Part shown: in pieces, positions 17,609 through 57,076 of the stretch
Layout: every line of letters begins with the position of its first letter
Numbering within the stretch: position 1 is the first letter of the stretch
NCBI GenBank assembly: GCA_016712505.1
Contig: JADJQY010000002.1
Coordinates: forward strand, 254,203-318,202
DNA from: Candidatus Eiseniibacteriota bacterium
GTDB lineage: Bacteria; Eisenbacteria; RBG-16-71-46; CAIMUX01
DNA length: 64,000 nt
Reading direction: 5' to 3'
Notes under the pieces: generated by a model
Told to the model about the DNA's origin: nothing
Seen by the model: the letters and a program-made list of their open reading frames with translations, nothing else
Databases searched by the model: none
Made by a program: the position numbers and the translations under genes

Positions 17609-17786
17609 CCTCGGGCCCTGGCCCCGCGAAGATGAAAGATGAACGCCGCGGCGGCCCAATGGTAGGTTTGCCGTCGGTTTGTCGCCGGGGAGGGCTCGCG
17701 GGAGCCCCGTTTCCCCGTGAACGAGAACAGAGCCCGATCGGGCGGCGCGGTCGCGCACGCCCCGGGTGAACGAAAGGCTTAGCGGA

Positions 17787-19286
17787 ATGCAAAAGATCGC
17801 GGTCATCGGGACCGGCTATGTCGGCCTCGTCACTGGCGCATGCCTGGCGGATTTCGGCAATCGGGTCATCTGCGTCGATCAGGTGGAGTCGAAGATCGCT
17901 GCCTTGAACGCGGGCAAGCTCCCGTTCTACGAGTTTTCCCTGGGCGAGATCGTCGAGCGGAACGTGCGCGAAGGGCGCCTCCTCTTCAGCTCCGATCTGG
18001 CGGAAGCGATCCGGAGCAGCAAGGTGATCTTCACCGCGGTCGGCACGCCGCCCGGGAAGGACGGCCAGGCCGACCTGTCGCAGGTCTGGACCGTCGCCCG
18101 CACCATCGCTCAGCACCTGAACGGCTACAAGGTGGTGGTGCAGAAGAGCACGGTCCCGGTCGGCACCGGGCAGCAGGTGCGTCGCATCATCATGGAGAGC
18201 CTGAAGAAGCGGATTCCCTTTGATGTCGCGAGCAATCCGGAGTTCCTGCGCGAGGGGAGCGCGGTCGAGGACTTCATGCGCCCCAACCGCGTGGTGATCG
18301 GCACCTGGAGCAAGCAGGCCGAGCAGACCCTGTCGGAGATCTACCGCCCGCTCTATCTCAACGAAACGCCGATGGTGAAGACCACGGTGGAGACCGCGGA
18401 GCTGATCAAGTACGCCTCGAACGCCTTCCTCGCGACCAAGATCTCCTTCATCAACGAGATGGCGAATCTCTGCGAGGTGGTGGGGGCCGACGTCAAGACG
18501 GTGTCGCGCGCGATGGGGCTCGATAACCGCATCGGCTCGAAGTTCCTCCACGCCGGTCCGGGCTACGGCGGGTCGTGCTTTCCCAAGGACACCCTCGCCC
18601 TGGCCAGCTTCAGCCGCGAGTTCGGCACGCCAAGCCGCATCGTCGAGGCCACGATCGAGGTGAACGAGCAGCAACGGGTGCGGATGCTGGAGAAGCTTCA
18701 GACCTTGCTCAAGAACTTCAAGGGGAAGGAGATCGCGGTCCTCGGGCTCTCCTTCAAGCCGCAGACCGACGACGTGCGCGATTCGGTCGCGCTCGATCTG
18801 ATCCGGATGCTGCAGAAGCGTGGGGCCAAGGTGCGGGCCTTCGATCCCGTCGCGATGGAGAAGGCCGCCGAGGAGCTGAAGCAGGTGAAGTTCTGCGACG
18901 ACTCCTACATCGCGGCCAAGGGGGCCGACGCCCTGGTCATCGCGACCGAGTGGAACGAGTTCCGCATGCTCGACCTGAACAAGATCAAACGCAGCATGCG
19001 CACCCCGGTGGTGCTCGACTGCCGCAACATCTACGACCCGGCGAAGCTGGAGTCGATGGGGTTCAAGTACTCCGGGGTCGGGCGTGGTCGGCACCAGGAG
19101 GACGCGAAGGGGAAGAGCCGGGCGCGGAAGCCGGCGACCCGGACCAGCGCCAAGTCCGCGCCGGCCCCGAAGCGGGCGGCGCGCGCGCCCAAGCAGGCGG
19201 CACGCGGGCCCAAGAAGGCCGCGCGACGCGCAGCGAGCCCCAACCCAACCCGCCGCAACTTCGGCCGACAGGAGGGTGGACGTTGA
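17787..19286 (+). CDS. ugd: UDP-glucose 6-dehydrogenase with unusual ~65-aa Lys/Ala/Arg/Pro-rich C-terminal tail
   Basis: MQKIAVIGTGYVGLVTGACLA Rossmann start and a GGSCFPKD catalytic Cys motif. The tail reads KGKSRARKPATRTSAKSAPAPKRAARAPKQAARGPKKAARR. Confidence 0.88.
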   Translation: MQKIAVIGTGYVGLVTGACLADFGNRVICVDQVESKIAALNAGKLPFYEFSLGEIVERNVREGRLLFSSDLAEAIRSSKVIFTAVGTPPGKDGQADLSQVWTVARTIAQHLNGYKVVVQKSTVPVGTGQQVRRIIMESLKKRIPFDVASNPEFLREGSAVEDFMRPNRVVIGTWSKQAEQTLSEIYRPLYLNETPMVKTTVETAELIKYASNAFLATKISFINEMANLCEVVGADVKTVSRAMGLDNRIGSKFLHAGPGYGGSCFPKDTLALASFSREFGTPSRIVEATIEVNEQQRVRMLEKLQTLLKNFKGKEIAVLGLSFKPQTDDVRDSVALDLIRMLQKRGAKVRAFDPVAMEKAAEELKQVKFCDDSYIAAKGADALVIATEWNEFRMLDLNKIKRSMRTPVVLDCRNIYDPAKLESMGFKYSGVGRGRHQEDAKGKSRARKPATRTSAKSAPAPKRAARAPKQAARGPKKAARRAASPNPTRRNFGRQEGGR

Positions 19287-19738
19287 TCGATGGCGTGGTG
19301 GTGAAGCCGCTCAAGGTGATCCCCGACGAGCGCGGCTACCTGATGGAGATCTTCCGCGACGACGATCCGTTCTTCCGGAAGTTCGGCCAAGCGTATCTGA
19401 CCGTCGTCTATCCCGGGGTGGTCAAGGGGTGGCACTACCACAAGGTCCAGGACGATCATTTCTGCGTGGTCAAGGGAATGTCGAAGGTCGTGCTCTACGA
19501 CCTGCGCGAAGGCTCCCCGACCAAGGGTGAAGTGAACGAGTTCTTCATGGGGGAGAAGAATCCGATCCTGCTGCTCATCCCCCACGGAGTCCTGCACGGG
19601 ATGAAGGGGGTCGGCGTGGAGCCGGCCCTCCTGCTCAACATTCCGACCGAGCACTACGACTACAAGGACCCCGACGAGTATCGGGTCCATCCGCACGACA
19701 ACGACATTCCCTACGACTGGGAACGAAAGGACGGATAG
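19283..19738 (+). CDS. RmlC-like cupin (dTDP-4-dehydrorhamnose 3,5-epimerase family)
   Basis: TTG 19283 follows a GGAGGG RBS and overlaps the ugd TGA. The sequence VIPDERGYLMEIFR...GWHYHKVQDDHFCVVKG is typical of short RmlC-type cupins. Confidence 0.7.
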   Translation: MIDGVVVKPLKVIPDERGYLMEIFRDDDPFFRKFGQAYLTVVYPGVVKGWHYHKVQDDHFCVVKGMSKVVLYDLREGSPTKGEVNEFFMGEKNPILLLIPHGVLHGMKGVGVEPALLLNIPTEHYDYKDPDEYRVHPHDNDIPYDWERKDG

Positions 19739-20764
19739 GTGAGACCGGTCGAAACGGGCCGCTACCTGGTGACCGGTGGGGCCGGTTTCATCGGGACCAA
19801 CTTCGTGCACGAGTGCCTGCGCCGCCATCCCCAGGCGCAGGTCACGGTGCTGGACAAGCTCACCTACGCCGGGAATCCGCGGAACCTCGATCCGGTGCGG
19901 AACGATCCCCGCTTCCGCTTCGTCCAGGGGGACATCGCCGATGCCGCGATCGTCGAGCCGTTGATCGCCGAGGGGTTCGACTTCGTCATCAACTTCGCCG
20001 CCGAGACCCACGTCGACCGTTCGATCGGCGACCCCGCCTCCTTCGTCAAGACCGACGTCTTCGGCGTCTATACCCTGCTCGAAGCGGTGCGCAAGCACCC
20101 CGTCTCGCTCTTCGTCCAGATCTCGACCGACGAGGTCTACGGTGAGATCCTCGACGGGGCGGCGACCGAGCAGTCGCCGCTCCTGCCCCGGAATCCCTAC
20201 TCCGCTTCGAAGGCGGGCGGGGATCGTCTGGCCTACTCCTACTGGGCCACCTACGACATCCCGGTGGCGATCACGCGGTGTTCGAACAACTACGGACCGT
20301 ACCAGTATCCGGAAAAGCTGGTCCCGCTCTTTGTCACCAATGCCCTGCAGGGGGAGAAACTGCCGGTCTACGGATCGGGGAAGAACACGCGGGATTGGAT
20401 CCACGCCCTCGACCACGTCAATGCCATCTTCCACATCCTGGCCGCGGACGGCGTCGAGGGGGAGGTCTGGAACATCGGGGCGGAGAACGAGCGGAGCGTG
20501 CTCGAGATCGGCGGGGAGCTGCTCCGGCTGCTGGGCAAGACGGATGCGCTCCTGGCCTCGGTGGTCGACCGTCCGGGCCACGATCGGCGGTACGCCGTCG
20601 ACTCGTCGAAGCTGCGGGCCAAGACCGGCTGGAAGTGCGAGGTTCCGTTCGAGCAGGGACTCGCCGAGACGGTTCGCTGGTACGAGGAGAATGCCGACTG
20701 GTGGCGCCCGCTCAAGAGCGGGGAGTTCCTCGACTACTACAAGCGCAACTACAAGTTCCTTTGA
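19739..20764 (+). CDS. rfbB: dTDP-glucose 4,6-dehydratase
   Basis: VTGGAGFIGTNFV, a YSASKAGGD catalytic YxxxK, and RCSNNYGPYQ. Confidence 0.9.
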   Translation: MRPVETGRYLVTGGAGFIGTNFVHECLRRHPQAQVTVLDKLTYAGNPRNLDPVRNDPRFRFVQGDIADAAIVEPLIAEGFDFVINFAAETHVDRSIGDPASFVKTDVFGVYTLLEAVRKHPVSLFVQISTDEVYGEILDGAATEQSPLLPRNPYSASKAGGDRLAYSYWATYDIPVAITRCSNNYGPYQYPEKLVPLFVTNALQGEKLPVYGSGKNTRDWIHALDHVNAIFHILAADGVEGEVWNIGAENERSVLEIGGELLRLLGKTDALLASVVDRPGHDRRYAVDSSKLRAKTGWKCEVPFEQGLAETVRWYEENADWWRPLKSGEFLDYYKRNYKFL

Positions 20765-20892
20765 CCGGGCGCTCCAGGCATGAGCCCGGGGGACGCGCCG
20801 AAGACGGCCCAGGGGGCGCCGCCATCGGAGGAGCCGACCCCCAAGTCAAGGCGGGCCCAGAAGCCCCGGGATTCCCGGATCCGAGATCGGCG

Positions 20893-22068
20893 TTGACGGA
20901 GCGAAGCCTGGACATTAGCGTTCCCTCGGGGGTAGAAGATGCCTCCAGGACCCGTGCCCCGTCTCCACCGCGGACGCGTCTTTCCAGTCCAGAAAGAGGA
21001 GAAGCGAAGCTGAAAGCGGATCCAACGGGGAAGCCCGTCCTCGTCACCGGCGGGGCAGGTTTCATTGGCTCCCATTTGGTGGAGGCGCTGGTCGCCCGCG
21101 GTCACGAGGTCCGAGTCCTCGACGACCTCTCGACCGGCCGCAGGGAGAATCTCGCATCCGTCCTGGCCTCTGGACGGGTCGAACTGATCGTCGCACAAGT
21201 CCAGGATCAAGAACGACTGCGCGCCGCGATCGAAGGCTGCCGCACGATCTACCACCTCGCCGCCTCGGTCGGCGTGGGTGCCGTGACCCAGCACCCTCTC
21301 GAGTGTCTGAAGAACAACGCCGACGGCTTCCAGTCGCTCTTCCACGCCATCGAGGCGGTGGGATCGCAGGGCGGCAGATCGGCCTCAGGCGGACCGGCTG
21401 CAGGCGGATCTGGAGCCTTCGACCGCGTCGTGGTCTTTTCCAGCAGCGAGGTCTACGGCAAGTCGACCGCACCTGCCCTGCGGGAGGACGACGACCTCCA
21501 CCTCGGCCCGACCCACGTGCCGCGCTGGTCGTACGCCGCGGCCAAGGCGTTCGGGGAGTTCCTCGCCCTGACCACCCACCGCGAGCAGGGGCTGCCGGTC
21601 ACGATCATCCGCTGCTTCAATACCGTCGGCCCGCGCCAGCTTCCGACCTACGGCATGGTCCTCCCGCGTTTCGTGGCCCAGGCTCGTCGCGGCGAGCCCC
21701 TGACCGTCTACGGCGACGGCGCGCAGACCCGCTGCTTCTCCTTCGTGGAGGACGTGGTGAACGGTGTGCTCGACCTTGCCGCCCATCCAGGCGCTGACGG
21801 GCAGGTGTTCAACATCGGATCCGACGAGGAGACCTCGGTTCTCTCCCTGGCCGAGCGGGTCATCGCGTTGACCGGGAGCAGCTCCGACATCCGCTTCATT
21901 CCGTACAGCGATGTCTACGGAGGAGACGTGGCCGACATCCAACGTCGCGTGCCCGACCTCTCGCGCATCCGCGGCTTGATCGGGTATGCGCCGCGCACCC
22001 GCCTCGACGGGATCCTGCGCGCCACGCTCGAAACCCAGATCGCGGCCGATCTCCCGGTGGGGCGCTAG
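20893..22068 (+). CDS. NAD-dependent epimerase/dehydratase (UDP-sugar 4-epimerase / decarboxylase-like); start uncertain
   Basis: VLVTGGAGFIGSHLVEAL and YAAAKAFGE (YxxxK). The only in-frame canonical start upstream of the Rossmann motif is TTG 20893. Confidence 0.75.
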   Translation: MTERSLDISVPSGVEDASRTRAPSPPRTRLSSPERGEAKLKADPTGKPVLVTGGAGFIGSHLVEALVARGHEVRVLDDLSTGRRENLASVLASGRVELIVAQVQDQERLRAAIEGCRTIYHLAASVGVGAVTQHPLECLKNNADGFQSLFHAIEAVGSQGGRSASGGPAAGGSGAFDRVVVFSSSEVYGKSTAPALREDDDLHLGPTHVPRWSYAAAKAFGEFLALTTHREQGLPVTIIRCFNTVGPRQLPTYGMVLPRFVAQARRGEPLTVYGDGAQTRCFSFVEDVVNGVLDLAAHPGADGQVFNIGSDEETSVLSLAERVIALTGSSSDIRFIPYSDVYGGDVADIQRRVPDLSRIRGLIGYAPRTRLDGILRATLETQIAADLPVGR

Positions 22069-22109
22069 CGCGGCCCGTTGCGGCTCGCTGCGCGGACCGA
22101 TCCGGTGCG

Positions 22110-23051
22110 ATGAATCCCTATCTCCCCGGGGCGGTCGGCTTTGTCGTCGCCGCCCTGGTCTCCGCAGTTTCCGTCCGCTTCTGGCGCGGCCGCCTGAGCG
22201 GCGACGGCTGGGTCGACCGACCCCGTCCCGATCGCCACAGCCTGCGCGCCGTTCCGCGGATCGGCGGGCCTGCCTGGCTCTCCGGCATGGTCGTCGGCCT
22301 ACTGATCCTCTCGCTGCTCGAGGCGCGCGGCTTCGGCTACGCCCAGGCCCATGTCGCTAGTGCGTCGCTCCTCGCCGTGGCCATGCTCCTGGCCTTCACT
22401 CTCGGCCGCTGGGAGGAGAGAGGAGAGTTCCGCGCCGGCTTCAAGTGGCGTTTGCAACTCCTGCTCCTCCTGCTCACGGTGCTCGGATTGATGCTCGCGC
22501 AAGGAAGCCAGGCTGATCCCATCAACGTGCCCAAGCTCCGTCTCCTGGTCGCCCTCGGCGTGGCCACCCTGCTCCAGCTCGCGCTCAACATCGCCGACAA
22601 CCTCGATGGTGCCCTTGGCGCTGCCTCGCTCTTCGGGCTGCTCGGGCTGGCGCTGGCCGGGCACGGGTTCATTCCTGCCGCCGACGCCGCCTGGGCGGGT
22701 GCAGGTGCGACGCTCGGCTTTCTCTGCTGGAACCTTCCCCCCGCGCGGATCTTTCTCGGAAACGGCGGAAGCGAGATGCTCTCCCTCCTCGCCGCCGCGT
22801 TGCTCGCGGTGGCCTGGGCGCGCCCCACCGCCGAGCCGCGCTGGACGCTGCTCCTCCCCTTCGCCTGGCCGCTGTTCGATTTCGTCTTCGTGGTGCTCCG
22901 CCGCCTCCGGGAAGGCCGGAAGCCCTGGCAGGGGGGCCGGGACCACACCACCCATCTACTCGCGCGCCGGTTCGGATCCGATCGACCGGTGACCGCACTG
23001 TTGTTGCTCGTGGCGGCGATCGGGCTCGCGGTCGCGTTTCTCTCGATCTAG
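22110..23051 (+). CDS. glycosyltransferase family 4 (MraY/WecA-like polyprenyl-phosphate sugar-1-phosphate transferase)
   Basis: Polytopic membrane protein with a NIADNLDGALG (NxxDxxDG) motif. Confidence 0.7.
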   Translation: MNPYLPGAVGFVVAALVSAVSVRFWRGRLSGDGWVDRPRPDRHSLRAVPRIGGPAWLSGMVVGLLILSLLEARGFGYAQAHVASASLLAVAMLLAFTLGRWEERGEFRAGFKWRLQLLLLLLTVLGLMLAQGSQADPINVPKLRLLVALGVATLLQLALNIADNLDGALGAASLFGLLGLALAGHGFIPAADAAWAGAGATLGFLCWNLPPARIFLGNGGSEMLSLLAAALLAVAWARPTAEPRWTLLLPFAWPLFDFVFVVLRRLREGRKPWQGGRDHTTHLLARRFGSDRPVTALLLLVAAIGLAVAFLSI

Positions 23052-23233: not shown

Positions 23234-23599
23234 GTGGAGGCAAGCTCCCAACGCAGGGCGCGGCTCGTAGAGGACGGCGTGAGTTTCGATGCGGCAGTCC
23301 AGAAGGGTAAGCAGCTCTTCGCCACCTACCGCGGGCGACAGAAGTTAGCCCAGGCGCGGGAGAAAGCCGACCGGATCCGGACCGCCGCCGAGGCGATCCT
23401 GCGTGGCGCCCACGGGTCGTTCGAGGCGACGCGGGAAGCCGTGGCCCAGATGCTCACGGGCGAGGCGAGCGGCACTCACTTCCAGACGGTGCACCGAAAG
23501 CTCCAGTCCGTTGAACCGGCGGACTTCGAGAGCGTTCAGGACCATGCGGCCCTCGCGGAGTACCTGGCGACCCCCGCGGAGGAAGCGGACGGAGAGTGA
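23234..23599 (+). CDS. hypothetical helical protein, coupled to the downstream ImmA/IrrE peptidase
   Basis: A 121-aa ORF. Its stop overlaps the next start (GTGA). No HTH signature was recognised. Confidence 0.4.
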   Translation: MEASSQRRARLVEDGVSFDAAVQKGKQLFATYRGRQKLAQAREKADRIRTAAEAILRGAHGSFEATREAVAQMLTGEASGTHFQTVHRKLQSVEPADFESVQDHAALAEYLATPAEEADGE

Positions 23600-24399
23600 G
23601 TCTGGAGCATCCGAGGGCTCGCGGAAGGGCGCGCCAGCGCATCGCGGAGTTCGGCATTCAAAGCCCGGAGGAGATCGACCTCGAGGCCCTCGCCGCCGCG
23701 CGCAACGTTCTCGTTCGAGAAGCCGCCCTGGCGGGGGCACAGGCCCGATTGGTGCGGAGGAAGAGGGGAGGGGTGATCCGGGTCCACGCTGGCCTCGGTT
23801 CGCTGGGCCAGAAGCGGTTCTGCGTGGCACACGAACTCGGTCACCTCCTGCTGCACGAAGGGGTGGATCAGTTGGCGTTCTGCTCCTCGACCGACATGCT
23901 CCCGGGTTACCGTGCGCGGCCTGAGGAGCCGGAGGCGAACGCCTTCGCCGCAGACCTCCTGATGCCAGAGCGGATGTTCCTCGACGCCTGCCGAGGCGAA
24001 CGGCCGACCTTCGGCCTCTTGGCCGGCGTCGCGGAGTCGTTTCGGGTGACGCTCTCGGCGATGGCCTTTCGGTACGTGGAACTCGGCGTTCGGGTCTGTG
24101 CTGTGGCTCACTCTGAAGAGGGCCACATCCGTTGGTCGAAGGCGGCGGGGGATTTCCGGATTCGGCTTCGTGAGTGGGGAAGCCGGCTCGATGGTCGGAC
24201 CCGTGCTTCCGACTTCTTTGGAGGCAGAACCCGGAGAACGAACGAGGAGGACGTGCCGGCGGAGGCCTGGCTGGATGACCACCGCGTGGAGGCGCGCTGG
24301 ACGATCCGTGGAATCATGATCCCGATGCCGACCTACGACAGCACCCTGAGCCTCCTTTGGGTCGTGGATGGGTCGGAGCTGGATGCATGTGGGGCATGA
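23596..24399 (+). CDS. ImmA/IrrE family metallo-endopeptidase (COG2856-type)
   Basis: HEXXH in FCVAHELGHLLLHEG, followed by EEPEANAFAADLLMPERMF, the typical third-ligand and family motif. Confidence 0.8.
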   Translation: MSLEHPRARGRARQRIAEFGIQSPEEIDLEALAAARNVLVREAALAGAQARLVRRKRGGVIRVHAGLGSLGQKRFCVAHELGHLLLHEGVDQLAFCSSTDMLPGYRARPEEPEANAFAADLLMPERMFLDACRGERPTFGLLAGVAESFRVTLSAMAFRYVELGVRVCAVAHSEEGHIRWSKAAGDFRIRLREWGSRLDGRTRASDFFGGRTRRTNEEDVPAEAWLDDHRVEARWTIRGIMIPMPTYDSTLSLLWVVDGSELDACGA

Positions 24400-24749: not shown

Positions 24750-26076
24750 TCTGAAGGGGTGATACGGTCCCGATCGGGCAAGCACCCGAGGGAGGGACCG
24801 AAGATGGACGACAAGACTCTGTACGCCACGTTGTTGGGCCTGACTGAGCCGTGGGGAGTCGAGAAGGTGGAGCTGAAGCTGGCTGCCGGAGAGGTCCACA
24901 TCTACGTTGCCCTTCCCCCGAAGGAGCTCTGGGTTTGTCCGGAGTGTCTGGAACGAGCTCCGATCCATGACCATCGGGAGCGCACCTGGCGCCACCTCGA
25001 CACCTTTCAGTATCGGACGATTCTTCACGCCCGAGTGCCCCGCCTGAGCTGCCCCAACCACGGGGTGAAGCAGATCCGCGTGCCCTGGGCCGAGGACGGC
25101 TCGAGATTCACCTCGCTCTTCGAGGCTTTGGCCATCGACTGGATGAAGCAAGCTTCCATCTCCGCCGTGGCCACGCGCCTGCATCTGACCTGGGATGAGG
25201 CCGCTGGCATCCAGGACCGTGCGGTCCGTCGAGGCTTGGCCCGACGCAAGGCAGAACCGGTGCGCTACATCGGTATCGATGAAACGTCTTTCCAGCGCGG
25301 GCACAAGTACGTCACCGTTGTCTCCGACCTCGCGAAGCCACGAGCGCTCTACGTGGCCGACGATCGAAGGCGGGAGAGCCTGGACGGCTTCTGGGAGAGC
25401 ATGACTCCCGAGCAACTGCGCGCCATCGAGGGCGTTGCGATGGACATGTGGGAACCGTTCGTCGGTGCGGTCCGAGAGAGCATTCCGCGAGGCGCTGAAA
25501 AGATCGTCTTCGACAAGTTCCACATCGCCAAACACCTGAACGACGGCGTCGACCAGGTGCGCCGCCGAGAGCACCGCGCCCTCCTTGCGCAAGGCAACGG
25601 CTGGCTCAAGGGCACGAAGTACGACTGGCTCCGCAACCCAGCCCGGTTCAGCCTGTCGGAATGGCGAAAGTTCCTTCCCAGGGCTCGCCGCGGCCGCCTG
25701 AAGACGGGGCGTGCCTGGAGCCTCAAAGAGGAATTCATGCGGTTCTGGGACTACCGGTACCGTGGCGCCGCCGACCGCCACTTCAAGAGCTGGTATGCCT
25801 GGGCCGTCCGCAGCCGACTCGAGCCCATGAAGAAGGTCGCCAACATGATCAAGCGGTACTACGACAACATCGCGACCTACTTCACACTTCCGATCACCAA
25901 TGCTGCCGCCGAGGGCTTGAATGCAGCCATCCAGCGGGTCAAAGGCATGGCGCGTGGCTTCCGTAACCCCGAGCGCTTCCGGATGGCTATCTACTTCCAC
26001 TGCGGTGCCCTCGACCTGTACCCACGCTCATGCATGTTCACCCAATGAACTTAGCCACACGAAACCCGGAAGACCC
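24711..26076 (+). mobile_element. ISL3-family insertion sequence
   Basis: The terminal inverted repeat GCCTCTTCCGGCTCCCGTGTGG (24711..) matches the reverse complement of CCACACGAAACCCGGAAGACCC (..26076). It contains a single transposase ORF. No matching 8-bp flanks are present (CCAATGGT vs CGGATATG). Confidence 0.8.
24804..26048 (+). CDS. ISL3 family transposase
   Basis: An N-terminal zinc-finger region (CPECLERAPIHDHRERTWRHLDTFQY...CPNHG), then a DDE domain (IGIDETSFQRGHKYVTVVSDL...). ATG 24804 follows a GGAGGG RBS. Confidence 0.9.
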   Translation: MDDKTLYATLLGLTEPWGVEKVELKLAAGEVHIYVALPPKELWVCPECLERAPIHDHRERTWRHLDTFQYRTILHARVPRLSCPNHGVKQIRVPWAEDGSRFTSLFEALAIDWMKQASISAVATRLHLTWDEAAGIQDRAVRRGLARRKAEPVRYIGIDETSFQRGHKYVTVVSDLAKPRALYVADDRRRESLDGFWESMTPEQLRAIEGVAMDMWEPFVGAVRESIPRGAEKIVFDKFHIAKHLNDGVDQVRRREHRALLAQGNGWLKGTKYDWLRNPARFSLSEWRKFLPRARRGRLKTGRAWSLKEEFMRFWDYRYRGAADRHFKSWYAWAVRSRLEPMKKVANMIKRYYDNIATYFTLPITNAAAEGLNAAIQRVKGMARGFRNPERFRMAIYFHCGALDLYPRSCMFTQ

Positions 26077-26325
26077 CGGATATGTTGCCCTCGCCTCAGC
26101 CGCTATCTGTGTTTCTGATGCGGATTTGGTTCACCTCGCCCAGCCACCGGGGATGGCTCTACAGCGAATCACTCCAGAGGGGTCACCTGCCGGCAGCGAT
26201 GCAAGGTCAAACGGGACAGGCCGCCCGAACAACACGCACCCAGCCTCACGGCGCATACCTGCCCGGCCAACCGCGCCATTCACCCAGCCACACGACGTTT
26301 CACGCGAGTCAGCGAAAGGGAGAGT

Positions 26326-27298
26326 GTGGGATGTGACGCCTGCAAATCCGGTGGCGATTTGACGCCCCAGCCGCTTGTGCAGATATCTACTTCTCGCCCG
26401 GGTGGGCGCGTTTTCGTGCCGTCACGGTACAACATCATCATATCCGGAACTGCTTCGACCCCGACTTTGATTCTCAACACCTACACAAGTGCTCTGATCG
26501 CGCTGGACGATGAAACAGACGAAGAAACAGTGCGGAGTATTCTAGCCCGCCCGCTCACGCGGGAGACGGACACTCCGGCCAGTGCAAAGACGATTGCGAC
26601 GCTATCTCGCAATGGCTTTCTCGTCGAGTCGGAGAGAGACGAGCGCGCGGAGATCAACCTGCGCGGGGAGCTCGGCAGGTATCGCTCTCGTCAAGTGATG
26701 CTGACGATCCTACCCACACTGCGGTGCAATTTTTCCTGCGACTACTGCTTCGAAGCCCATCCTGATGAGAACATGACTCCGGAGGTGGAAGACGGCATAG
26801 TCCGGTATGTCCAGAGCGTGCGCCGCGATTACGATTCTCTTTTCGTAACTTGGTTCGGTGGCGAGCCGCTCTTGCGCTTGAGCGTGATTCGGTCACTCGC
26901 GCCCAAGTTGCAAGCGGTGTTTTCGCACTACAGTTCGACAATTATCACGAATGGGTTCCTCATGCGCCGCCAAGCCTCACGGCACCTGCTAGACGCAGGC
27001 GTGTCCTCGGCCCAGATCACCATGGATGGGCCTGAATTGTTCCACGAGGCCAGGCGACCGCACGTTGATGGAGTGCCGACCTACGCTCGCATTCTCGAAA
27101 ACATCCACGATGCGTGCGAATTGGACCTGGCCGTATCGGTGCGTGTAAACATGGATCGGAAGATGGCGAAAGCACCTGAATCCATGGCTAGGCTCATCGC
27201 GGATGTTTATGACGCCAGCGGGGGCAGGGCAGTACCATACTTCTCTCCCGTATTCGGATACGAGAACGCACCCGACTTTTCTACGGGAAACAGGACTA
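26326..27298 (+). pseudogene. radical SAM peptide-maturase gene, 5' part (interrupted by IS630)
   Basis: CX3CX2C cluster motif LRCNFSCDYC and WFGGEPLL. The N-terminal ~100 aa precede the rSAM core, as in peptide-modifying rSAM enzymes. The reading is cut at the TA target 27297-27298. The true start may be GTG ~26377. Confidence 0.85.
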
Positions 27299-28360
27299 AA
27301 TCGCTTTGCATGATTCCGCAACACCACCTCGGCAGCCCAGCGGTTCGCGCTGCGTGTTCAACCGCCTGCTGAGGTACTGGAAGATCGCTTCGAGCAGGTC
27401 GATCATCGTCTTCTTGTCGTGGTTGCGGGTGACGTTGTCGTGCACGTCTTTCCAGAGCCGCTCGATCCGGTTCTCCTGGGGACAGTAAGGAGGCAGGAAG
27501 TGCAACTCGATCCGCCCGCCGAGCTCCCGCAGCGCCTTCTCGACCCAGCGGCTCTTGTGGATCACGTAGTTGTCGAGGATGAGGTGGATTGTCCTGGTTC
27601 GGTGATAGATCGAGGCCAGAAGATGAAGCAGACGGACGAAGAGCCAGCTCGCTTTCCGGTCGCCTTCGACGTAGATCAGTCGACCCTGGGCATGGTCATA
27701 TGCGCCAGCCAGGTAGCGCTTCTCGTTCCGACCCGGAGTCTCGACGTAACGCTGCTGCCCCCGCAGCGTCCAGTCCGGTCCGATCCGCGGGTTCTTATGG
27801 ATGTCGATCTCGTCGACGAAGAGCACGACCTCGCGGCGGGCACGGTGGGCGGCCAAGGCGCGCAGCTCGGCGATCCGATCCTCGCGCCGACGGCGGCTCC
27901 AGGGGCATCGGACGAACGGTCGCGCCCGCTTGAGCACCACACCGAGAGAGCGCATCACCTTGCTCAGGTGCCCAAGCGAGAGCCGAACGTTCAGTTCTTT
28001 CGCAATCACCTGAGCCAAGACCTCGAGCGACCAAGTGGATCGTTGAAAGCCATGATCAGCCGGTCGGCCGACCACGATCTGGAGGATTCCGCCGCGAACG
28101 TCTTCGTCGACCTTGAGCGACCCGTTCTCCGTCCGCCGATCCAGCAGGCCCTGCTCCCCTTCGGCGCGGAAGCGAAGGGCGACTCTCCAAGCGGTCGATG
28201 GGGCGCAACCCAGGGCCATCGCGGCGGCGTGTGCGCTCAACCCTTCCGCCATCTTCAAAACCAAGCGGCAGCGGATCCGAAAATCGGCATTGCGGGTCTT
28301 CTGACTGGCTCGGATAATGCGGCGTCGGATCGGACGGGAAAGACGTCCGAGATCGAACAT
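27296..28360 (-). CDS. IS630 family transposase
   Basis: An HTH N-terminus, a DDE domain, and the family-typical LPPYCPQENRIERLWKDVH. The ORF reads through the inverted repeat. Its TAG stop is built from the TA duplication plus one host base. Confidence 0.9.
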   Translation of the reverse strand: MFDLGRLSRPIRRRIIRASQKTRNADFRIRCRLVLKMAEGLSAHAAAMALGCAPSTAWRVALRFRAEGEQGLLDRRTENGSLKVDEDVRGGILQIVVGRPADHGFQRSTWSLEVLAQVIAKELNVRLSLGHLSKVMRSLGVVLKRARPFVRCPWSRRRREDRIAELRALAAHRARREVVLFVDEIDIHKNPRIGPDWTLRGQQRYVETPGRNEKRYLAGAYDHAQGRLIYVEGDRKASWLFVRLLHLLASIYHRTRTIHLILDNYVIHKSRWVEKALRELGGRIELHFLPPYCPQENRIERLWKDVHDNVTRNHDKKTMIDLLEAIFQYLSRRLNTQREPLGCRGGVAESCKAI

Positions 28361-28495
28361 CGTGAGACCTCCTTGTCGTCGGTTGGGACCAACAACAGAC
28401 TGGCAGGTGAGGTCTTACGGCTTCTAGGCTTGATCTTCATCCCCGCACCCGGGCATCCTCAGGGGAATCGCTATTTTGAATCATGCAAAGCGATT
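27299..28495 (-). mobile_element. IS630-family insertion sequence with TA target-site duplication
   Basis: Perfect 18-bp terminal inverted repeats: AATCGCTTTGCATGATTC (27299-27316) and GAATCATGCAAAGCGATT (28478-28495). TA flanks both ends, at 27297-98 and 28496-97. Confidence 0.9.
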
Positions 28496-28988
28496 TAGCA
28501 ACCGCGAGTTTTCGGCTGCCGTAGAATCAATCTACAAGATTGCGCTACGAGACCGAGGGCGTCAGATTCGCTTGCCCAACCTCAAGAGCGATTCGTGCGG
28601 CGTCTGCATCGCCGTCAAGCCTGACTCATTCACGATCGCTCCTGACGGTACTCTTTACAAATGCTGGGAAGAACCCGGGGGCGCTGTCGATAAGCCATGC
28701 GGCCACATTCTTCGCGACATGCGATCTCCTGCAGAACTGTCCCGGGATCTTGCGTGGGTCAATTGGAAAGAATGGCAAAGTGACGAGTGCCAATCTTGTT
28801 CCTACTTGCCAATGTGTATGGGTGGTTGCACGCGCGTCGTGCAATCCACAAACAGAATTGGGGACAAGTACAGCGAGACGTGCGAGCATTGGTTCAGCTG
28901 GGTTCCGATGGTCGCACGCCTTCGGTATCACCATCAGTCAGCAAAGAGCGAGCCACTAGAGGAGGAGGTGTTGCTTGAAGATCATTGA
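28496..28988 (+). pseudogene. radical SAM maturase gene, 3' part encoding the SPASM domain
   Basis: CGVC...PDGTLYKC, plus the exact SPASM signature CX2CX5CX3C in CQSCSYLPMCMGGC. The reading frame is continuous with 26326..27298 after IS removal. Confidence 0.85.
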
Positions 28989-29221
28989 TGGCACTGATCT
29001 CGACCGAACGGACAAAGTACTGCCTGGACATATGTCGTTACTGGGTGGCGCTGGGAACATGGCGTGGCAACATAGTTGCTGCACATCGATGCACAGTTGC
29101 GGGGTGGACCTACCAAGAAGGGACTAGTCAGTGTCCGGGCTCACTGTGTATCTCGGAACACTGTACAGATATGTCTTGTACGGGGCATAGCTGCCTCAAT
29201 TTGAGCTGTCCACTACACTGA
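28985..29221 (+). CDS. 78-aa Cys-rich peptide, candidate RiPP precursor
   Basis: The start (TTG 28985 / ATG 28988) overlaps the maturase stop (TGATG). There are nine Cys, and six sit at residues 50, 55, 60, 65, 70 and 75 (QC PGSLC ISEHC TDMSC TGHSC LNLSC PLH). The stop overlaps the next ATG. Confidence 0.5.
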   Translation: MMALISTERTKYCLDICRYWVALGTWRGNIVAAHRCTVAGWTYQEGTSQCPGSLCISEHCTDMSCTGHSCLNLSCPLH

Positions 29222-29238
29222 TGCTTTTAGGAGGAAGC

Positions 29239-29745
29239 ATGACTCATCCAGTGTCTCGACGTGCATTCCTGCGCGTACTTCCTATGGGTTTGCTAGGTCT
29301 ATCAGCCTGTGCCTCGGATGGGAGCCGGAGGATCAGCGGACCTGGTGAGTTCACGCCCGCGACGTCTAGTTCTCCGGTGGATGTGCTGCAGCACTTGGCT
29401 AGTGCTACGACGGCAGTAGACGTTGATGTGTTTTCGACGCTTCTCGCGCACGACTATAGGCAATCGTGCTCCCTCGGTGTTGAGCCATGGTCGAGGGACA
29501 CTGCGCTTGAATTGTTCCGAAAATATGCCGAGAACTCGCCGGGCGTGGTGCGACAGATGACGTTCGAACTACTCGGCCAGGCACGTGTCACGGAAGTTGC
29601 TGATGGATGGGTGATCGATGGACTGGAGCAGGTGGTGCATATCGAGATGCCCCTCGACGTCATCGATAGTCGCGTGCCTGTGCAGGCATGGGTGCGACGC
29701 GAGCAAGGCGTGTATGTGATCTACCGGTATGATTACACCAGCTAG
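29239..29745 (+). CDS. secreted lipoprotein, NTF2/SnoaL-like (putative)
   Basis: Strong RBS TAGGAGGAAGC before ATG 29239. A Tat-like signal with lipobox follows (SRRAFLRVLPMGLLGLSAC). It is a paralog of the next gene. Confidence 0.55.
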   Translation: MTHPVSRRAFLRVLPMGLLGLSACASDGSRRISGPGEFTPATSSSPVDVLQHLASATTAVDVDVFSTLLAHDYRQSCSLGVEPWSRDTALELFRKYAENSPGVVRQMTFELLGQARVTEVADGWVIDGLEQVVHIEMPLDVIDSRVPVQAWVRREQGVYVIYRYDYTS

Positions 29746-29747
29746 AA

Positions 29748-30274
29748 ATGAGGTGCGCAATGCAAGCATGGGTGTCTGCGATCGTTGGGTGCGTGCTCGT
29801 GGTGACTGCTGTAAACGCGGAGCCAGCCGAGCAGTTCTGCGCTGTGAATGCGCCTGAGGCGGTCCTGCAGTGTTTCGCAAGCGCCGTCACCAACCGGGAC
29901 TTCGTCCGAGCCGGAGAGCTATTCGCTGCAGAGTTTGTACGCGAGTACCTGCCGAACGAGAAGGGCACGGCCCCTATTCCACTTGGGAAGTCAGAATTTT
30001 TGGCTGCCGCGGAGTGGTTCATGGCTTCTGGCAATATCCAGAACCCGAGATACGAAGTGGCGTTTGGCGGTGTCGTGGTGCCTAACGCTCAGACGGGGGA
30101 TGGACGCTTCCGAATGTGACCTATACTGTACTAGGGCGCGGGAGAGACCAGTCTGGAAAGATGGTCGACATTAATGCGTCGAACGGAACGGTGACGGTGG
30201 AGGTTGTTCGTCTGGATCAGCCGGTGCCGCATTTCGTCATGACCCGATGGACGGAGTCTCAGACGGGCAAGTGA
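29748..30274 (+). CDS. secreted NTF2/SnoaL-like protein, paralog of 29239..29745; apparent single-base frame break
   Basis: Signal peptide MRCAMQAWVSAIVGCVLVVTAVNA. The shared motif is PEAVLQCFASAVT vs PVDVLQHLASATT. ORF 29748..30119 continues sensibly (GGWTLPNVTYTVLGRG...FVMTRWTESQTGK) if G5 run 30095-30099 were G6. Confidence 0.5.
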
Positions 30275-30540
30275 CAACGTCGAAGGGTTCCGCTGTGGCG
30301 GCTTCCGCGATCCTGCGCCAGACGCATTCTCGCCCCCCCCGGGGTACCCGGAGATCGCATTGGAAAATTCCAGGCCCCGATGTCGGTGGTTGGCGCGATG
30401 TCTCGGCCGTCTGACGGTACCTCGACGCGATTTGTTTCAGGCCACATCACGGGGCGGTGGACAGCAGGGGTTAGCTGCCGGTCGCGGCGGAATCGCGGAT
30501 CATAGACTGGCAGGGTAGGTTATCGTCACAGGTGGAAGAC

Positions 30541-30671
30541 TCAGAACGGGACCTTGTGACTCGCACTCTCCGACGTCCTCCGCACCCGCTTGTCGTAGAT
30601 CTGCGTTGTTTGCGGATTCTTGTGCCCCAAGAGGAGCTGCACCTCCTCGAGGGGCACACCGCCTTTGAGGA
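30541..30671 (-). pseudogene. tyrosine recombinase fragment, C-terminal end
   Basis: LLKGGVPLEEVQLLLGHKNPQTTQIYDKR carries the LLGH....TT..Y box with the catalytic Tyr. It abuts the IS66 left end. Confidence 0.7.
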
Positions 30672-30710
30672 GTATGCGCCAAGTGAACCACACCCCCCTC
30701 CCGACACCGA

Positions 30711-32375
30711 TCAGGAAGTGCGTGACTCCACTTCCGGTCGCCAGCGGGTTGGCAGGAGCCGCTCGTAGTCCTCGACTGTTGTCGCCTTCGGCAGTTCCGT
30801 GAACAGGTGGCTGAGATAGCCGTAGGGCTCGAGGTTGTTCGCCCGCGCCGTCTGGATCAGGCCGTAGAGGTTGGCGCTCGCCTCGGCGCCGTGCACCGTG
30901 TCCGAGAACAGCCAGTTCTTCCGGCCGATCGCGAACGGACGGATCGCGTTCTCCATCAGGTTGTTGTCGATCTCGAGTCGGCCGTCGTCGAGGTAACGGA
31001 GCAAGGAGTTCCACTGCTCCGAGGCGTACGAGATCGCCCGGCCGACCAAGCTCGTCGGCGGTACGTCTCCCTTGCTCGCATCCAACCACGCTTTCATCTC
31101 GGTCAAGATCGGGCCGGCCAGCACTTCGCGCGCCGCCTTCCGTGCGGGCGGATCCTGACCTCGGATGTCCCGCTCGATCCGGTACAGCTTCTGGATGTAG
31201 GCCATCCCCTGGTGAGCCTTCGACCGCCCCTTGATTGCCTGCTTCGCGCCAGCCTGCGCCTTCAACGCCTCATCGAACTTCCGCCGCACGTGGGCCATGC
31301 AGCCGACGCGGACCACCTTCGGGTTCGCGAAGCACCCGTTGTAGCCGGAGTACCCGTCGACCTGCACGAACCCCTCGAACCCCTGGAGGAGGCGCTCGGC
31401 TACCTCGCCGCCCCGCGTGGGGTCGTAGTCGAACAGCAGGATCGGTCGCTCCCGCGGACCACCCAGCCGACCCCAGAGGAAGGACTGGCTCTGGGCCGTC
31501 TTGCCGCTCTCCTTCAGCACCTGCACCCGCGTCTCGTCACAGTGGACGATGTCGTAGGCGAGCAGGTCGTCGTTCAGCAGGTTGATCACTGGCCGGACCA
31601 GCCGCCCGACGGCGATCATCCAGTTCGCCATGGTGGTGCGGGAGAGCTCGACCTCGACCCGCTCCCAGATCGCTTCCTGGCGATAGAGCGGGAGGGCGTC
31701 GCAGTACTTGGCCACCGCGATCTGGGCCAGGAGCGAAGGCGAGGCCATGCTCTTCGGGATCGGCTGCGGTGGAAGCGGCGCGATCCGTACGCCGTTCTCG
31801 CACCGCGGACAAGCGTACTTCGGTCGGACATTCTGGATCACCCGGACGGTGGCCGGGATGAACTCCAGTTGCTCGCTCGACTCCTCACCGATCTGCTCGA
31901 GCGGAGTCCCGTCCTGCGGGCAGATCTTCTCGTGCTCCCGTAGGTCGTGAACCACCCGTCGGCGCTCCATCCAGGCAGGAAGCGGGCGTCGTCCCCGCCG
32001 ATGACGCGGCTTGGCGCTCTCGGGACTCGCCGCGTCGCTGTCGCCCGCCTCGGGATCTGCGTCGAGGGTCGCGGGATGCGCCGCATCCTCCGTCTCGCCA
32101 TTGGCCAGGATCTCCGGCTCGTTGAAGAGCTGGAGCTGATCCTGGCTCGAACGTTCACTGCTCGGCCCGAAGCGCTTCCAGAGGTAGAGGCGAAGACGTT
32201 CGCGCAGCCGCTCGATCTCTGCCTGCTCGGCGATCAGCGCCGCCGTTTTCGCGTCCAGAGCGGCATTCGTGGCATGAAGCGTCGAGTGCAGGACGGCGCA
32301 CTCCGCCCGCGCTTGCAGGAGTAGTTGTTGCAGTACCGCGACGTCGTTGGGTAGGGGTTGGAGGTCCGTCTCCAT
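30711..32375 (-). CDS. tnpC: IS66 family transposase TnpC
   Basis: Leucine-zipper N-terminus, a zinc-finger YACPRCENG, and a DDE core (DETRVQV... DGYSGY...). Confidence 0.92.
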   Translation of the reverse strand: METDLQPLPNDVAVLQQLLLQARAECAVLHSTLHATNAALDAKTAALIAEQAEIERLRERLRLYLWKRFGPSSERSSQDQLQLFNEPEILANGETEDAAHPATLDADPEAGDSDAASPESAKPRHRRGRRPLPAWMERRRVVHDLREHEKICPQDGTPLEQIGEESSEQLEFIPATVRVIQNVRPKYACPRCENGVRIAPLPPQPIPKSMASPSLLAQIAVAKYCDALPLYRQEAIWERVEVELSRTTMANWMIAVGRLVRPVINLLNDDLLAYDIVHCDETRVQVLKESGKTAQSQSFLWGRLGGPRERPILLFDYDPTRGGEVAERLLQGFEGFVQVDGYSGYNGCFANPKVVRVGCMAHVRRKFDEALKAQAGAKQAIKGRSKAHQGMAYIQKLYRIERDIRGQDPPARKAAREVLAGPILTEMKAWLDASKGDVPPTSLVGRAISYASEQWNSLLRYLDDGRLEIDNNLMENAIRPFAIGRKNWLFSDTVHGAEASANLYGLIQTARANNLEPYGYLSHLFTELPKATTVEDYERLLPTRWRPEVESRTS

Positions 32376-32410
32376 GCCGCGGACTTTAACAGATGTCGCG
32401 CGTCATCGCA

Positions 32411-32767
32411 TCACAGAACAGTTGCGTAGGAGAGTTTCCTGTGAGGTCGGAGCTTCGAGAGATCGTAGCCATCGAGCAGCCAGTTCAGCTCGCGCCCGGT
32501 AATCGCGGTGACTCCGTCGCTGCTCTGCTCCGGCCAGTAGACCCGCTGCTTCTCGTAGCGCTTGTACCAGACGACGAAGCCGTTGCCTTCCCAGTAGAGG
32601 ACCTTCACCTTGTCCCGGTGGCGATTGCGGAACACGTAGAGCGCCGGCTCGAACGGGCTGAGGCCCAGCGTGCCTTCGACCAGCAGGCTGAGTCCGTTGA
32701 TCGACTTCCTCAAGTCGACGGCGGTTTGGCAGAGGTAGACCCGAACGCCCTCGGCCGGGCGCATCAT
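32411..32767 (-). CDS. tnpB: IS66 accessory protein TnpB
   Basis: 118 aa. The sequence VYLCQTAVDLRKSINGLSLLV...LYVFRNRHRDKVKVLYW is typical of IS66 Orf2. ATGA overlap with tnpA. Confidence 0.9.
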   Translation of the reverse strand: MMRPAEGVRVYLCQTAVDLRKSINGLSLLVEGTLGLSPFEPALYVFRNRHRDKVKVLYWEGNGFVVWYKRYEKQRVYWPEQSSDGVTAITGRELNWLLDGYDLSKLRPHRKLSYATVL

Positions 32768-33198
32768 CGAACCGGCTCCGGCGCCGCCGGCCGGAGAGAG
32801 GCGAGCAGAGAGAGCAAGTCGGCATCCGGGGTCCAGAAGGATGGATTCTCGATCTCCACAATCACGCCGTTGGCAAAGCGGAGGCGAAGATCGGTGCGTG
32901 GAACCGGGGCGTCTTCCGCCAGGCGAACCTCCGAGAACATGGGCACGGAGGGATTCCTGGAAGCCGGACTCGCCACCACCCGCAGTGGTCGGCGATGCAC
33001 CGCTGCGGCTGGGGTCGTCGCGGTCAACGCGCCGAGCTGGGTCAGCCGATTGCGCCAGGTGTAGAGTTGTCGGCAGTCGAGGCCGTGGCGCGCGGCGTAC
33101 GCGGCGGTGGTGGTGCCGCTCCTGCGACAGGCTTCCAGGTGCTTGCGCCAGTGTTCTTGCTTCGCGGTCAGCCGGGCGGCGAGGACTCCTCGGGGCAT
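32764..33198 (-). CDS. tnpA: IS66 accessory protein TnpA
   Basis: An HTH-like region (GTTTAAYAARHGLDCRQLYTWRNRL) and its first position in the IS66 operon. Confidence 0.8.
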   Translation of the reverse strand: MPRGVLAARLTAKQEHWRKHLEACRRSGTTTAAYAARHGLDCRQLYTWRNRLTQLGALTATTPAAAVHRRPLRVVASPASRNPSVPMFSEVRLAEDAPVPRTDLRLRFANGVIVEIENPSFWTPDADLLSLLASLRPAAPEPVR

Positions 33199-33274
33199 GT
33201 TGCCCTCCTTTCCTGGAGGGCAATCTCGCGGATCGCGGGGGGCTATGGGAAGATGGGTTTCAGTTGGCGGTTAC

Positions 33275-33781
33275 GCCGATACATCGCCGAGAGCCTAATT
33301 CTCCGCACCCCCAGCTTTCTCGACCGCGAGTTGGGCCGCGCCCGAAAGAGCGGCCCGCTGGTGAGCCCCGCGTGCGCCACATACTCCCGGATCGCCTCCG
33401 CCGCCTCCACGTGGATTCCAATGGTGCGCTTTGACTTCCCCCGGCCCTTCTCCTGGACCTTGACCGTCGGGTCGTCCTCCTCGAAATGAAAGTCCGCCAC
33501 ATCGAGCAAACACCCCGTCCGGATGCGGGACCCCGTGAACAGGTAGAACTTGAGGATTGCCCGGTCCCGGTAGTGGAGGATGTCGCCGTCCGCCGGCGGG
33601 AGCTCCATCAGTTTTCGTGCGTTCCGTGCGCTGAGAGCTACGGTCTCATCAATCGGATCCGTTGAGGGCCGCTTCACGAAATCCTTGTGCGCCGGATTGT
33701 GGATCAGGATCGGGAGCTTGGACCCGGCTGCGGCCTCCCGGATGAACTCAAAGAGGCCAGAGACCGCCGAGATGCGGTGAT
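33275..33781 (-). pseudogene. tyrosine recombinase fragment, central part
   Basis: RISAVSGLFEF..., RDRAILKFYLFTGSRIRTGCLLDVADF (Arg-I region) and VKVQEKGRGKSKRTIGIH (beta-hairpin Lys region). It lies between the IS21-like and IS66 ends. Confidence 0.75.
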
Positions 33782-33866
33782 CCCCCGGCGGCCACCTCAA
33801 CTTCCTCCACTTGTGGCCGGGTCAACTTCCTCCACTTGAGCTCACGACGGGACGGCGGGGAGGATC

Positions 33867-34639
33867 CTATTCGCCCGAGCGCTTGCGCACAACCCGGGCC
33901 GCAGCTTCCTTCAGGCGCCAGCTCTTCCCCTCGAACTTGAGCAGGTGGCCGTGGTGCATCAGGCGATCGAGGAGGGGGGTGACGATGACCACATTGCCGA
34001 GCAGCTTCGCCCAGTCTTCGATCACGCGATTCGAGGTGATCAGGGTGGAGCCCTTCTCGTATCGCCCCATGAGGAGATCGGCTAGCTCGTCGCCGGCGTT
34101 CGCAGGCAGCTTTCGGAGGAAGAGATCGTCGATGATCAGCAACTCGATGCCCCGTAGCTGCGTCCGGAGCTTCCGGATCGTCCGAGTTCGCGGGCCTCGG
34201 TGACGTCCTCGATCAGTTCATGGGCCTCGCGGTAGAGCACGCGGTGACCACGCTCCACCGCGAGCAGGGCGATCGCCTTGGCCACGTGGCTCTTGGCCGT
34301 GCCGGGCGGCCCCAGGAGAATGGCATCTTCCCGATCCTCGATGAACTTACAAGTCGCGAGTTCGAGGATGTCGCGTCGCGGCAGACGAGGATTGTAGCTC
34401 CAGTCCAACTCGGCCAGGGTGCGGCGTTCGGTTAGCCCGGACAGGGCGTACTTACGATCCTGCAGTCGCGTGGATCGACGATCCAGCTCGTCCTGAACCA
34501 ACCGGGAGAACGCTTCCAGGAACGACATCTCGTGGCTCGCCACGTGGAGCGCTCGCGCTTCGATCGCTGCGCTCATTCCCGACAACCGCAGAGTGCGGAG
34601 CGCACTCTCCAGCTCAGTACGTGACATGGGCATCGGCAT
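33867..34639 (-). pseudogene. istB: IS21 helper ATPase IstB, frameshifted
   Basis: Walker A is LLGPPGTAKSH (ORF 34136..34639) and Walker B is LLIIDDL (ORF 33867..34142), and they lie in different frames. The break is near 34190-34215. Confidence 0.85.
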
Positions 34640-56942: not shown

Positions 56943-57076
56943 GCGGGGGGCGATGCCGGTCGGCGGAGCGGATCGCCGCCGCGTGCAGCCAACGGGTACA
57001 CCGAAGCGGCGTTTCCCGTGTACTCTTCCGGGGGAGACGCCCCGCACGGACGTCGATCGAAGGAGGAAGGTTCCGA

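Follow-up and report, generated by a model that had tools for sequence, protein, structure and literature searches.

The 78-aa open reading frame with regularly spaced cysteines that a sequence-only reading had singled out in this stretch of DNA (the window hereafter, that is, the whole 64-kb stretch that was analysed) is, to judge from its sequence and that of its relatives, a frameshift chimera, the product of a 1-nt insertion in a run of G residues. The genuine part of this ORF is the cysteine core only; its first 40 or so codons are out of frame, and it cannot be kept as a gene in the limits originally given to it. The surrounding region is probably what remains of a four-gene cassette, now a dead copy, that encoded a radical SAM (rSAM)/SPASM maturase, a precursor peptide of about 81 aa and two exported NTF2-like proteins. 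The features on which this view is based are collected in Table 1.

We think that this potentially tells us two things. The window itself is chiefly of cautionary value: a striking ORF proved to be a frameshift chimera within a dead cassette, and the pattern of a cysteine at every fifth position is not new in itself, a named NCBIfam family for it being in existence. The main value lies in the intact cassettes of two relatives (loci L001 and L084, see below) and in their NTF2-like partners. These cassettes define a rare clade of rSAM/SPASM peptide maturation outside all curated families (four loci in total from searches of billions of proteins), the hallmarks of which are a precursor with eight or nine cysteines and an unusual pair of exported NTF2-like proteins, in strict linkage. 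They provide a new substrate/enzyme pair for tests of thioether topology, and the clade raises the question of the role played by NTF2-like partners in such clusters.

Table 1. Features of the cassette region (positions in the window)
Feature	Position	Strand	Basis or remark
Maturase, N-terminal part (N-terminal domain and radical-SAM core, CNFSCDYC)	26326..27298	+	PF04055, 50.9 bits; alignments
IS630-like element splitting the maturase	27296..28498	-	21-nt inverted repeats, 27296-27316 / 28478-28498
IS630-like transposase gene	27296..28360	-	Intact; DDE_3 and HTH domains
Maturase, C-terminal part (SPASM domain)	28498..28988	+	TIGR04085, 50.6 bits (cut-off 27)
Shine-Dalgarno-like sequence, AGGAGGAGG	28960..28968	+	Sequence; 6 nt upstream of TTG 28975
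Predicted true leader and first Cys repeats (frame A), MKIIDGTDLDRTDKVLPGHMSLLGGAGNMAWQHSCCTSMHSCG	28975..29103	+	Alignments, shuffles, HMM
Reported ORF	28985 (TTG) / 28988 (ATG)..29221	+	ORF call and translation
GGGG run, likeliest site of the 1-nt insertion (frame A to frame B)	29101..29104	+	Junction scan
Cys-rich core (frame B), WTYQEGTSQCPGSLCISEHCTDMSCTGHSCLNLSCPLH and its stop codon	29105..29221	+	Homology, translation
NTF2-like (DUF4440-like) protein 1	29239..29745	+	Twin-arginine signal and lipobox (SRRAFL...LSAC)
NTF2-like protein 2	29748..30274	+	Sec-type signal; frameshift at GGGGG 30095-30099

As a description of the letters, the earlier account is accurate. Our translation of the ORF is identical to the one that had been quoted, the ATG does overlap the TGA stop codon of the maturase in TGATG (28986-28990), and six cysteines do follow one another with an exact period of five residues (residues 50, 55, 60, 65, 70 and 75, with codons covering 29132-29209); three more lie at residues 13, 17 and 36. 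This period-5 run of six cysteines is unique within the window in all six frames, and the statement that it is hard to get by chance is borne out by block shuffling, in which runs of five or six cysteines never appeared (0 in 100 shuffles, with four-Cys runs at 0.05 per window). A DNA tandem repeat was considered as the source of the period and rejected, Tandem Repeats Finder having detected no array in 28800-29400; the periodicity is thus a property of the protein level, and its units are not recent DNA duplications. An RNA element at the locus was also considered and discarded, as the Rfam scan of 25500-31000 gave nothing at E values up to 0.1.

Relatives of the maturase were sought in 5.8 billion proteins, in metagenome contigs and in GTDB genome contigs. 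Three close ones only were found, with 38-41% identity, the next best being at 35% or less: P0002, on a 5,239-bp contig of JGI sample 3300075153 with genes at 1447-2910 and 3018-3233; P0003, carried by three mutually identical contigs from ENA and Logan, L001-L003; and the enzyme of L084, from a Candidatus Eisenbacteria MAG. A further search with a four-sequence maturase profile returned no additional close relative. In all three, a gene of 71-82 aa lies directly 3' of the maturase gene, with genes of about 165 aa after it, and the co-occurrence of the peptide with maturase orthologs, which had been put forward as something to check, is therefore seen in every close relative found. With the window included, the small downstream gene is present at 4/4 loci of the close clade, and the three peptides that are readable are homologous (the relatives' peptides were read from L001 and L084, that of P0002, 71 aa long, being known from gene coordinates only).

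Both readable relatives, MKLVEGPRERDRNIKKSSKGGLFPASQVAGLRAPSHNCAVPHNCRWWGSCGVGETFCFVEGCTGEIGCTTHSCISVTGCSNL from L001 (P0121) and MQLVEGERWPRDDGRRKRRRPFLSARGVGAPGFACQYPWKCYYYSANCGTSFCEMEVCATSLTCGDHDCFEQSCSEY from L084, have a Cys-rich C-terminus that resembles the cysteine core of the window (BLASTP E 6e-4; tblastn E 2e-6 and 2e-5), and in all three peptides C-x3 forms the C-terminal end. This resemblance indicates that the core is real coding sequence, belonging to a conserved, maturase-linked gene. The strict register is another matter. Its conservation had been suggested as a check, and the relatives' cysteines are spaced by five to seven residues (6,6,7,5,6,5,6 in L001 and 6,7,5,5,6,5,5 in L084), hence the exact five-residue period is not conserved and is peculiar to the window. 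The family is small at the peptide level too: a word-index protein search with the peptide alignment, and a profile of the restored peptide (see below) and P0121 run against 1.84 billion representative proteins, each returned P0121 alone.

The leader is where the ORF as reported fails. Its 49 residues (frame B) resemble the leaders of the relatives no more than shuffled sequences do (z=0.34, with 710/2000 shuffles attaining the observed score), versus z=5.75 for the other frame (frame A), for which 0/2000 shuffles attain the observed score; the relatives' leaders, which begin MKLVEG... or MQLVEG..., align with frame A and not with the MMALISTERTKYCLDICRYW... of the earlier reading. Read from TTG 28975 without repair, frame A gives MKIIDGTDLDRTDKVLPGHMSLLGGAGNMAWQHSCCTSMHSCGVDLPRRD and then meets a stop codon. 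The 31-aa ORF at 29032..29127, named beforehand as a competing frame that might undermine the proposal, belongs to this same frame, and this is the real leader frame. The position of the putative ribosome-binding sequence points in the same direction: it lies 19 nt upstream of ATG 28988, and its spacing suits TTG 28975 and not that ATG. The peptide genes of the relatives have a similar arrangement (AGGAGG, a gap of 7 nt and ATG in L001; GAAGGAGG, a gap of 6 nt and ATG in L084). In the wider maturase clade, the adjoining Cys-rich precursors start with MKW[IV]VEP, MKIINPE or similar, which is consistent with frame A.

All possible 1-nt junctions between frames A and B were scored by alignment to the L001 and L084 peptides. 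The combined score, 76 for the unshifted ORF, peaks at 136 for a junction at 29100-29103, although this position is not unique, since junctions from about 29064 to 29103 are all high-scoring. If one G of GGGG 29101-29104 is deleted, the two frames join into a peptide of 81 aa, MKIIDGTDLDRTDKVLPGHMSLLGGAGNMAWQHSCCTSMHSCGWTYQEGTSQCPGSLCISEHCTDMSCTGHSCLNLSCPLH, which can be aligned with the two relatives from one end to the other. With an HMM whose only members are the L001 and L084 peptides, this restored peptide is matched over its full length (24.2 bits, E 5e-5 among 26,197 ORF segments), versus 15.3 bits for the 78-aa ORF as found, in which the core alone is matched. The restored precursor has the conserved short N-terminal motif MK[LI][VI][ED]G, and its C-terminal core contains nine cysteines; M1, G6, R11, G27, A30, C35, C42, C58, E61, C63, C68, H71, C73 and C78 are invariant in the alignment of the three peptides. 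The proposal of a RiPP precursor thus survives in its cysteine core, which is conserved beside maturases, and fails for the leader and for the fixed register.

The maturase gene, whose homology to its relatives begins near VFVPSRYN (about position 26413), is interrupted by an IS630-like element, the inverted repeats of which are 100% complementary over 21 nt, the duplicated TA included. The sequence-only reading had spoken of a restored maturase, and excision does restore it: once the element and one TA are removed, 26326..27298 and 28498..28988 join in frame. In the restored protein the CxxxCxxC motif of radical-SAM enzymes (CNFSCDYC) is invariant in 4/4 members of the clade, and the seven-cysteine SPASM motif (taken as C-x9-15-G-x4-C ... 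C-x2-C-x5-C-x3-C ... C) is present as C333...G347-x4-C352, C394-x2-C397-x5-C403-x3-C407 and C425, all of them invariant. With both motifs intact, the insertion looks recent. The N-terminal domain of about 95 aa can be aligned to the N-terminal ends of the TIGR04463, Clo7bot and CefB profiles; the Pfam scan of the maturase gave no match to PqqD, the type of domain (RRE) that binds leaders. The nearest solved structure is 5wgg/5why (E 3e-21), which is CteB, followed by an anaerobic sulfatase maturase; no alignment was obtained between the N-terminal domain of the maturase and that of 5wgg.

The products of the two genes 3' of the peptide are paralogues of about 165-175 aa, assigned as NTF2-like on the basis of DUF4440/SnoaL-type matches, one of which is above threshold and the others weak (an AlphaFold model of the first protein from its single sequence was poor, with a pLDDT of 44). 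Paralogue a has a twin-arginine motif at the different loci (SRRAFL in the window, QRRTFF and KRRRFL elsewhere), and paralogue b a Sec-type signal. In the window, the second gene is broken by a 1-nt deletion in its G-run, and its restored product can be aligned with the L084 paralogue through the repaired site (E 2e-12). When an HMM of these proteins was run over 163 related loci, they were found in the window, L001-L003 and L084 only; being confined to the close clade, the pair is a clade-specific part of the system.

The cassette of the window therefore carries three inactivating lesions: an IS630-like element interrupts the maturase, and the peptide gene and the second NTF2-like gene each have a frameshift. 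The idea that a repaired maturase and the reported peptide might be co-expressed as a working system has to be given up for this copy, a triple pseudogene, as repair of the maturase alone would not yield one. The cassette has 53-59% GC vs 66% for the window, and around it are an ISL3 element, an IS66 element, a truncated integrase and IstB (IS21) fragments. This AT-richer composition and these IS and integrase remnants point, as the most likely history, to an island that was acquired horizontally and is now decaying.

What would an intact cassette do? The Cys-repeat peptide is probably the substrate of the adjoining radical-SAM enzyme. By analogy with related systems, the leader would be bound by the N-terminal domain of the maturase, and a 5'-deoxyadenosyl radical, together with two auxiliary Fe-S clusters, would serve to cross-link core cysteines to carbons of neighbouring residues; the cross-links would be thioethers of the sactipeptide or ranthipeptide type (for general background on both classes, see PMC10288494). 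Glu61 and His71 are the sole invariant non-Cys residues of the core, and are for this reason candidate cross-link partners or structural residues. The modified product may then be exported, and the two NTF2-like proteins, themselves extracytoplasmic, may act together with it or handle it; for these proteins, roles in immunity, binding or partnership could apply. In the conserved cassette, we identified no transporter gene and no gene for a leader peptidase or protease.

Several other explanations have to be weighed against the reading of the ORF as a frameshift chimera in a decayed cassette. Spurious ORFs are abundant in high-GC genomes, and the cysteine period could be seen as an accident of sequence that is non-coding or read in another frame; we give this practically no credence, because the window has no second run of this kind and the shuffles have none and, above all, because orthologous maturases of independent lineages are accompanied by a core with a conserved protein sequence, a conservation that refutes it. 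Taking the 78-aa ORF at face value, as a true precursor produced by translational coupling at TGATG and endowed with a lineage-specific leader of 49 residues, is somewhat less far-fetched: the frame is open, its ATG overlaps the maturase stop codon, fast divergence is possible for RiPP leaders, and the frame-B tblastn match reaches back to AHRC. Nevertheless, it seems to us very unlikely. Frame B fares no better than shuffled sequence in the comparison of leaders, in which frame A stands far above it; the relatives' HMM covers the core only in the ORF as found, versus the full length in the restored peptide; the Shine-Dalgarno sequence, a strong one, is placed for TTG 28975; and a MKxxxE/D-G/P leader motif is recurrent in the wider clade. 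A further possibility is that the genes are intact in the organism, and that homopolymer errors in the assembly account for both the G gained at 29101-29104 and the G lost at 30095-30099. If it were true, the precursor (81 aa) and NTF2-like gene 2 would be normal, and only the maturase would have been lost, to the IS. Both breaks do sit exactly in G-runs, as is typical of long-read consensus sequences, and the source contig is longer than 1 Mb. As the IS630-like element is present in a single copy within the window, we used the statistics of G/C runs in long ORFs to gauge the quality of the assembly: the long intact ORFs found elsewhere in the window contain about 190 runs of at least 4 nt, none of which has a frame break (64 of them in an unbroken ORF of 6.2 kb and 49 in one of 4.3 kb), whereas 2/4 runs in the two short genes are hit. 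This makes mutation the more likely origin of the two frameshifts; moreover, the IS inactivated the cassette independently, and decay is then to be expected. We thus consider assembly errors unlikely, without regarding them as negligible.

A different kind of alternative concerns what the peptide is for. Rather than a free RiPP, it could be a cross-linked polypeptide that serves the exported NTF2-like proteins as a small subunit or ligand, following the logic of QhpC with unrelated partners; a polypeptide of about 80 aa would be stapled in the cytoplasm and possibly co-exported by the Tat route on the paralogue that carries the twin-arginine motif. In the QhpC/QhpD system, an rSAM/SPASM enzyme likewise introduces cross-links into a Cys-rich polypeptide, about 80 aa long, whose final location, together with partner proteins, is extracytoplasmic. 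The thioethers of QhpC are made to Asp or Glu, and the window family has its invariant core Glu. The NTF2-like pair is strictly linked to the maturase and the peptide at all readable loci and occurs nowhere else among the 163 loci; the motifs of paralogue a, the cassette without transporter or protease, a peptide that is long for a RiPP and the invariant Glu and His of its core would all fit. These are arguments from context, and there are points on the other side. The maturase scores 53.1 bits on the QhpD model (TIGR03906) vs a cut-off of 453; the locus lacks dehydrogenase subunits, QhpE/F/G and a Trp-quinone context, its partners being NTF2-like instead; we recognised no redox or cofactor motif; and unlinked exporters are common for small RiPP clusters. 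On balance, we hold the small-subunit idea to be rather improbable, and return to the peptide as a probable maturase substrate of the RiPP type.

On its profile scores, the system is a rare, uncurated variant of the rSAM/SPASM Cys-rich RiPP systems. The RiPP-type context that had been recognised from the sequence is confirmed to the extent that the nearest curated families of the maturase in NCBIfam are all RiPP maturases: TIGR04463 (214 bits, cut-off 525), Clo7bot (TIGR04334; 179 bits, cut-off 600), geopeptide (165 bits, cut-off 400), FlmE/OhkG (163 bits, cut-off 500) and CefB (NF038107; 146 bits, cut-off 600). TIGR04463 and Clo7bot are the best curated families for the maturase of the window as well as for P0002 and P0003, with alignments over the full length, N-terminal domain included. 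However, the clade reaches 214-219 bits on the former and about 180-200 bits on the latter, far below the respective cut-offs, which speaks for a separate clade, one that also has a precursor and NTF2-like accessory genes of its own. Our literature search found no paper on CefA/CefB ('Cys-every-fifth') or on the FlmE radical SAM enzyme; for OhkG, FlmE, TIGR04463, Clo7bot and NF038107, there were unrelated papers only among the matches listed.

The case of CefA/CefB deserves a brief explanation. It had been stated that the cysteine spacing did not match any family that could be named, and NCBIfam does hold a 'Cys-every-fifth' pair, CefA/CefB, in which an rSAM/SPASM maturase is likewise accompanied by a short precursor with a cysteine at every fifth residue, though the system of the window is not a member of it. 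The 78-aa ORF gives a weak match to CefA (NF038108) over residues 40-76 (15.3 bits, cut-off 30), the restored peptide falls to 12.8 bits and the L001 and L084 peptides have no match at all. The maturase aligns over the full length of CefB, yet P0003 (148 bits) and P0002 (166 bits) are as remote from its cut-off as the window. Scores so far under the cut-offs place the system outside the CefA/CefB family, and the every-fifth spacing itself, seen for six cysteines in the peptide of the window, breaks down in the close relatives.

With SCIFF/CteB and PapB, the system shares the radical-SAM core, the seven-cysteine SPASM motif and a Cys-rich C-terminal core. CteB and PapB carry out ranthipeptide chemistry, in which a cysteine thioether is formed to a non-alpha carbon. 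The differences are nonetheless marked: the N-terminal domain of the window maturase has no detectable similarity to that of CteB; the precursor of the window clade is about twice as long as SCIFF, has eight or nine cysteines and is without the SCIFF motif; and the maturase scores 54.8 bits on the SCIFF model (TIGR03974) vs a cut-off of 425, and 82 bits on that of PapB vs a cut-off of 340.

The cassette (26326-30274), which comprises the genes of the radical SAM/SPASM maturase, the Cys-rich precursor peptide and two exported NTF2-like proteins, has a GC content of 53-59%, as against 66% for the whole window, and this difference suggests that it was acquired horizontally. Genes of mobile elements are clustered around it, encoding an ISL3 transposase, the TnpC and TnpB of an IS66 element, a phage-type integrase truncated to 185 aa, and fragments of IstB (IS21); a gene for an M78/IrrE-like peptidase also lies in this part of the window. 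The IS630-like element that splits the maturase gene is complete and encodes an intact transposase (DDE_3, 354 aa), and only one copy of it is present within the window. Upstream of the island that holds the cassette, we observed a group of sugar-nucleotide/polysaccharide genes.

A 1-nt deletion within a stretch of G (GGGGG) also disrupts the second of the two NTF2-like genes; the two halves of this gene, aligned jointly, match the paralogue in L084, the locus of a close relative (a Candidatus Eisenbacteria MAG), with an E value of 2e-12. In L084, the Sec-type NTF2-like paralogue (2236-2817 of that locus) is located upstream, not downstream, of the maturase, so the cassette does not have a fixed gene order.

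Features and their coordinates (window positions, or positions within the locus named)
Feature	Coordinates	Remarks
Second NTF2-like gene	29748-30274	halves 29748..30119 and 30116..30274; frame broken at G-run 30095-30099
Mobile-element genes around the cassette	24750-26048; 30711-33223; 33243-33800; 33867-34639	
M78/IrrE-like peptidase gene	23596-24399	
IS630-like element	27296-28498	1,203 bp; perfect 21-nt inverted repeats, TA duplication
Sugar-nucleotide/polysaccharide group	17766-23051	UDP-glucose/GDP-mannose dehydrogenase, NAD-dependent epimerase/dehydratase, family-4 glycosyltransferase
Tandem Cys-rich precursors	L133 4253-4827; L098 4392-4822; L064 772-1269 and 4041-4427; L099 4512-5158	
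Direct repeat	257-637; 5073-5453	381 bp
Long ORFs	56492-62710; 47501-51793	stop-to-stop lengths of ~2,072 and ~1,430 codons

Downstream of more distant relatives of the maturase (~30% identity) lie two to five Cys-rich precursor genes in tandem, whose leaders start with MKW[IVF]VEP, MEY[IL]N[EL]P or MQELHSSD; these four loci (L133, L098, L064 and L099) form a wider set of multi-precursor systems that are apparently uncharacterised.

Elsewhere in the window, the two copies of a direct repeat, ~4.8 kb apart, are 95% identical with zero gaps. Two very long ORFs, which served as controls of assembly quality, both have a coding-like GC3 pattern.
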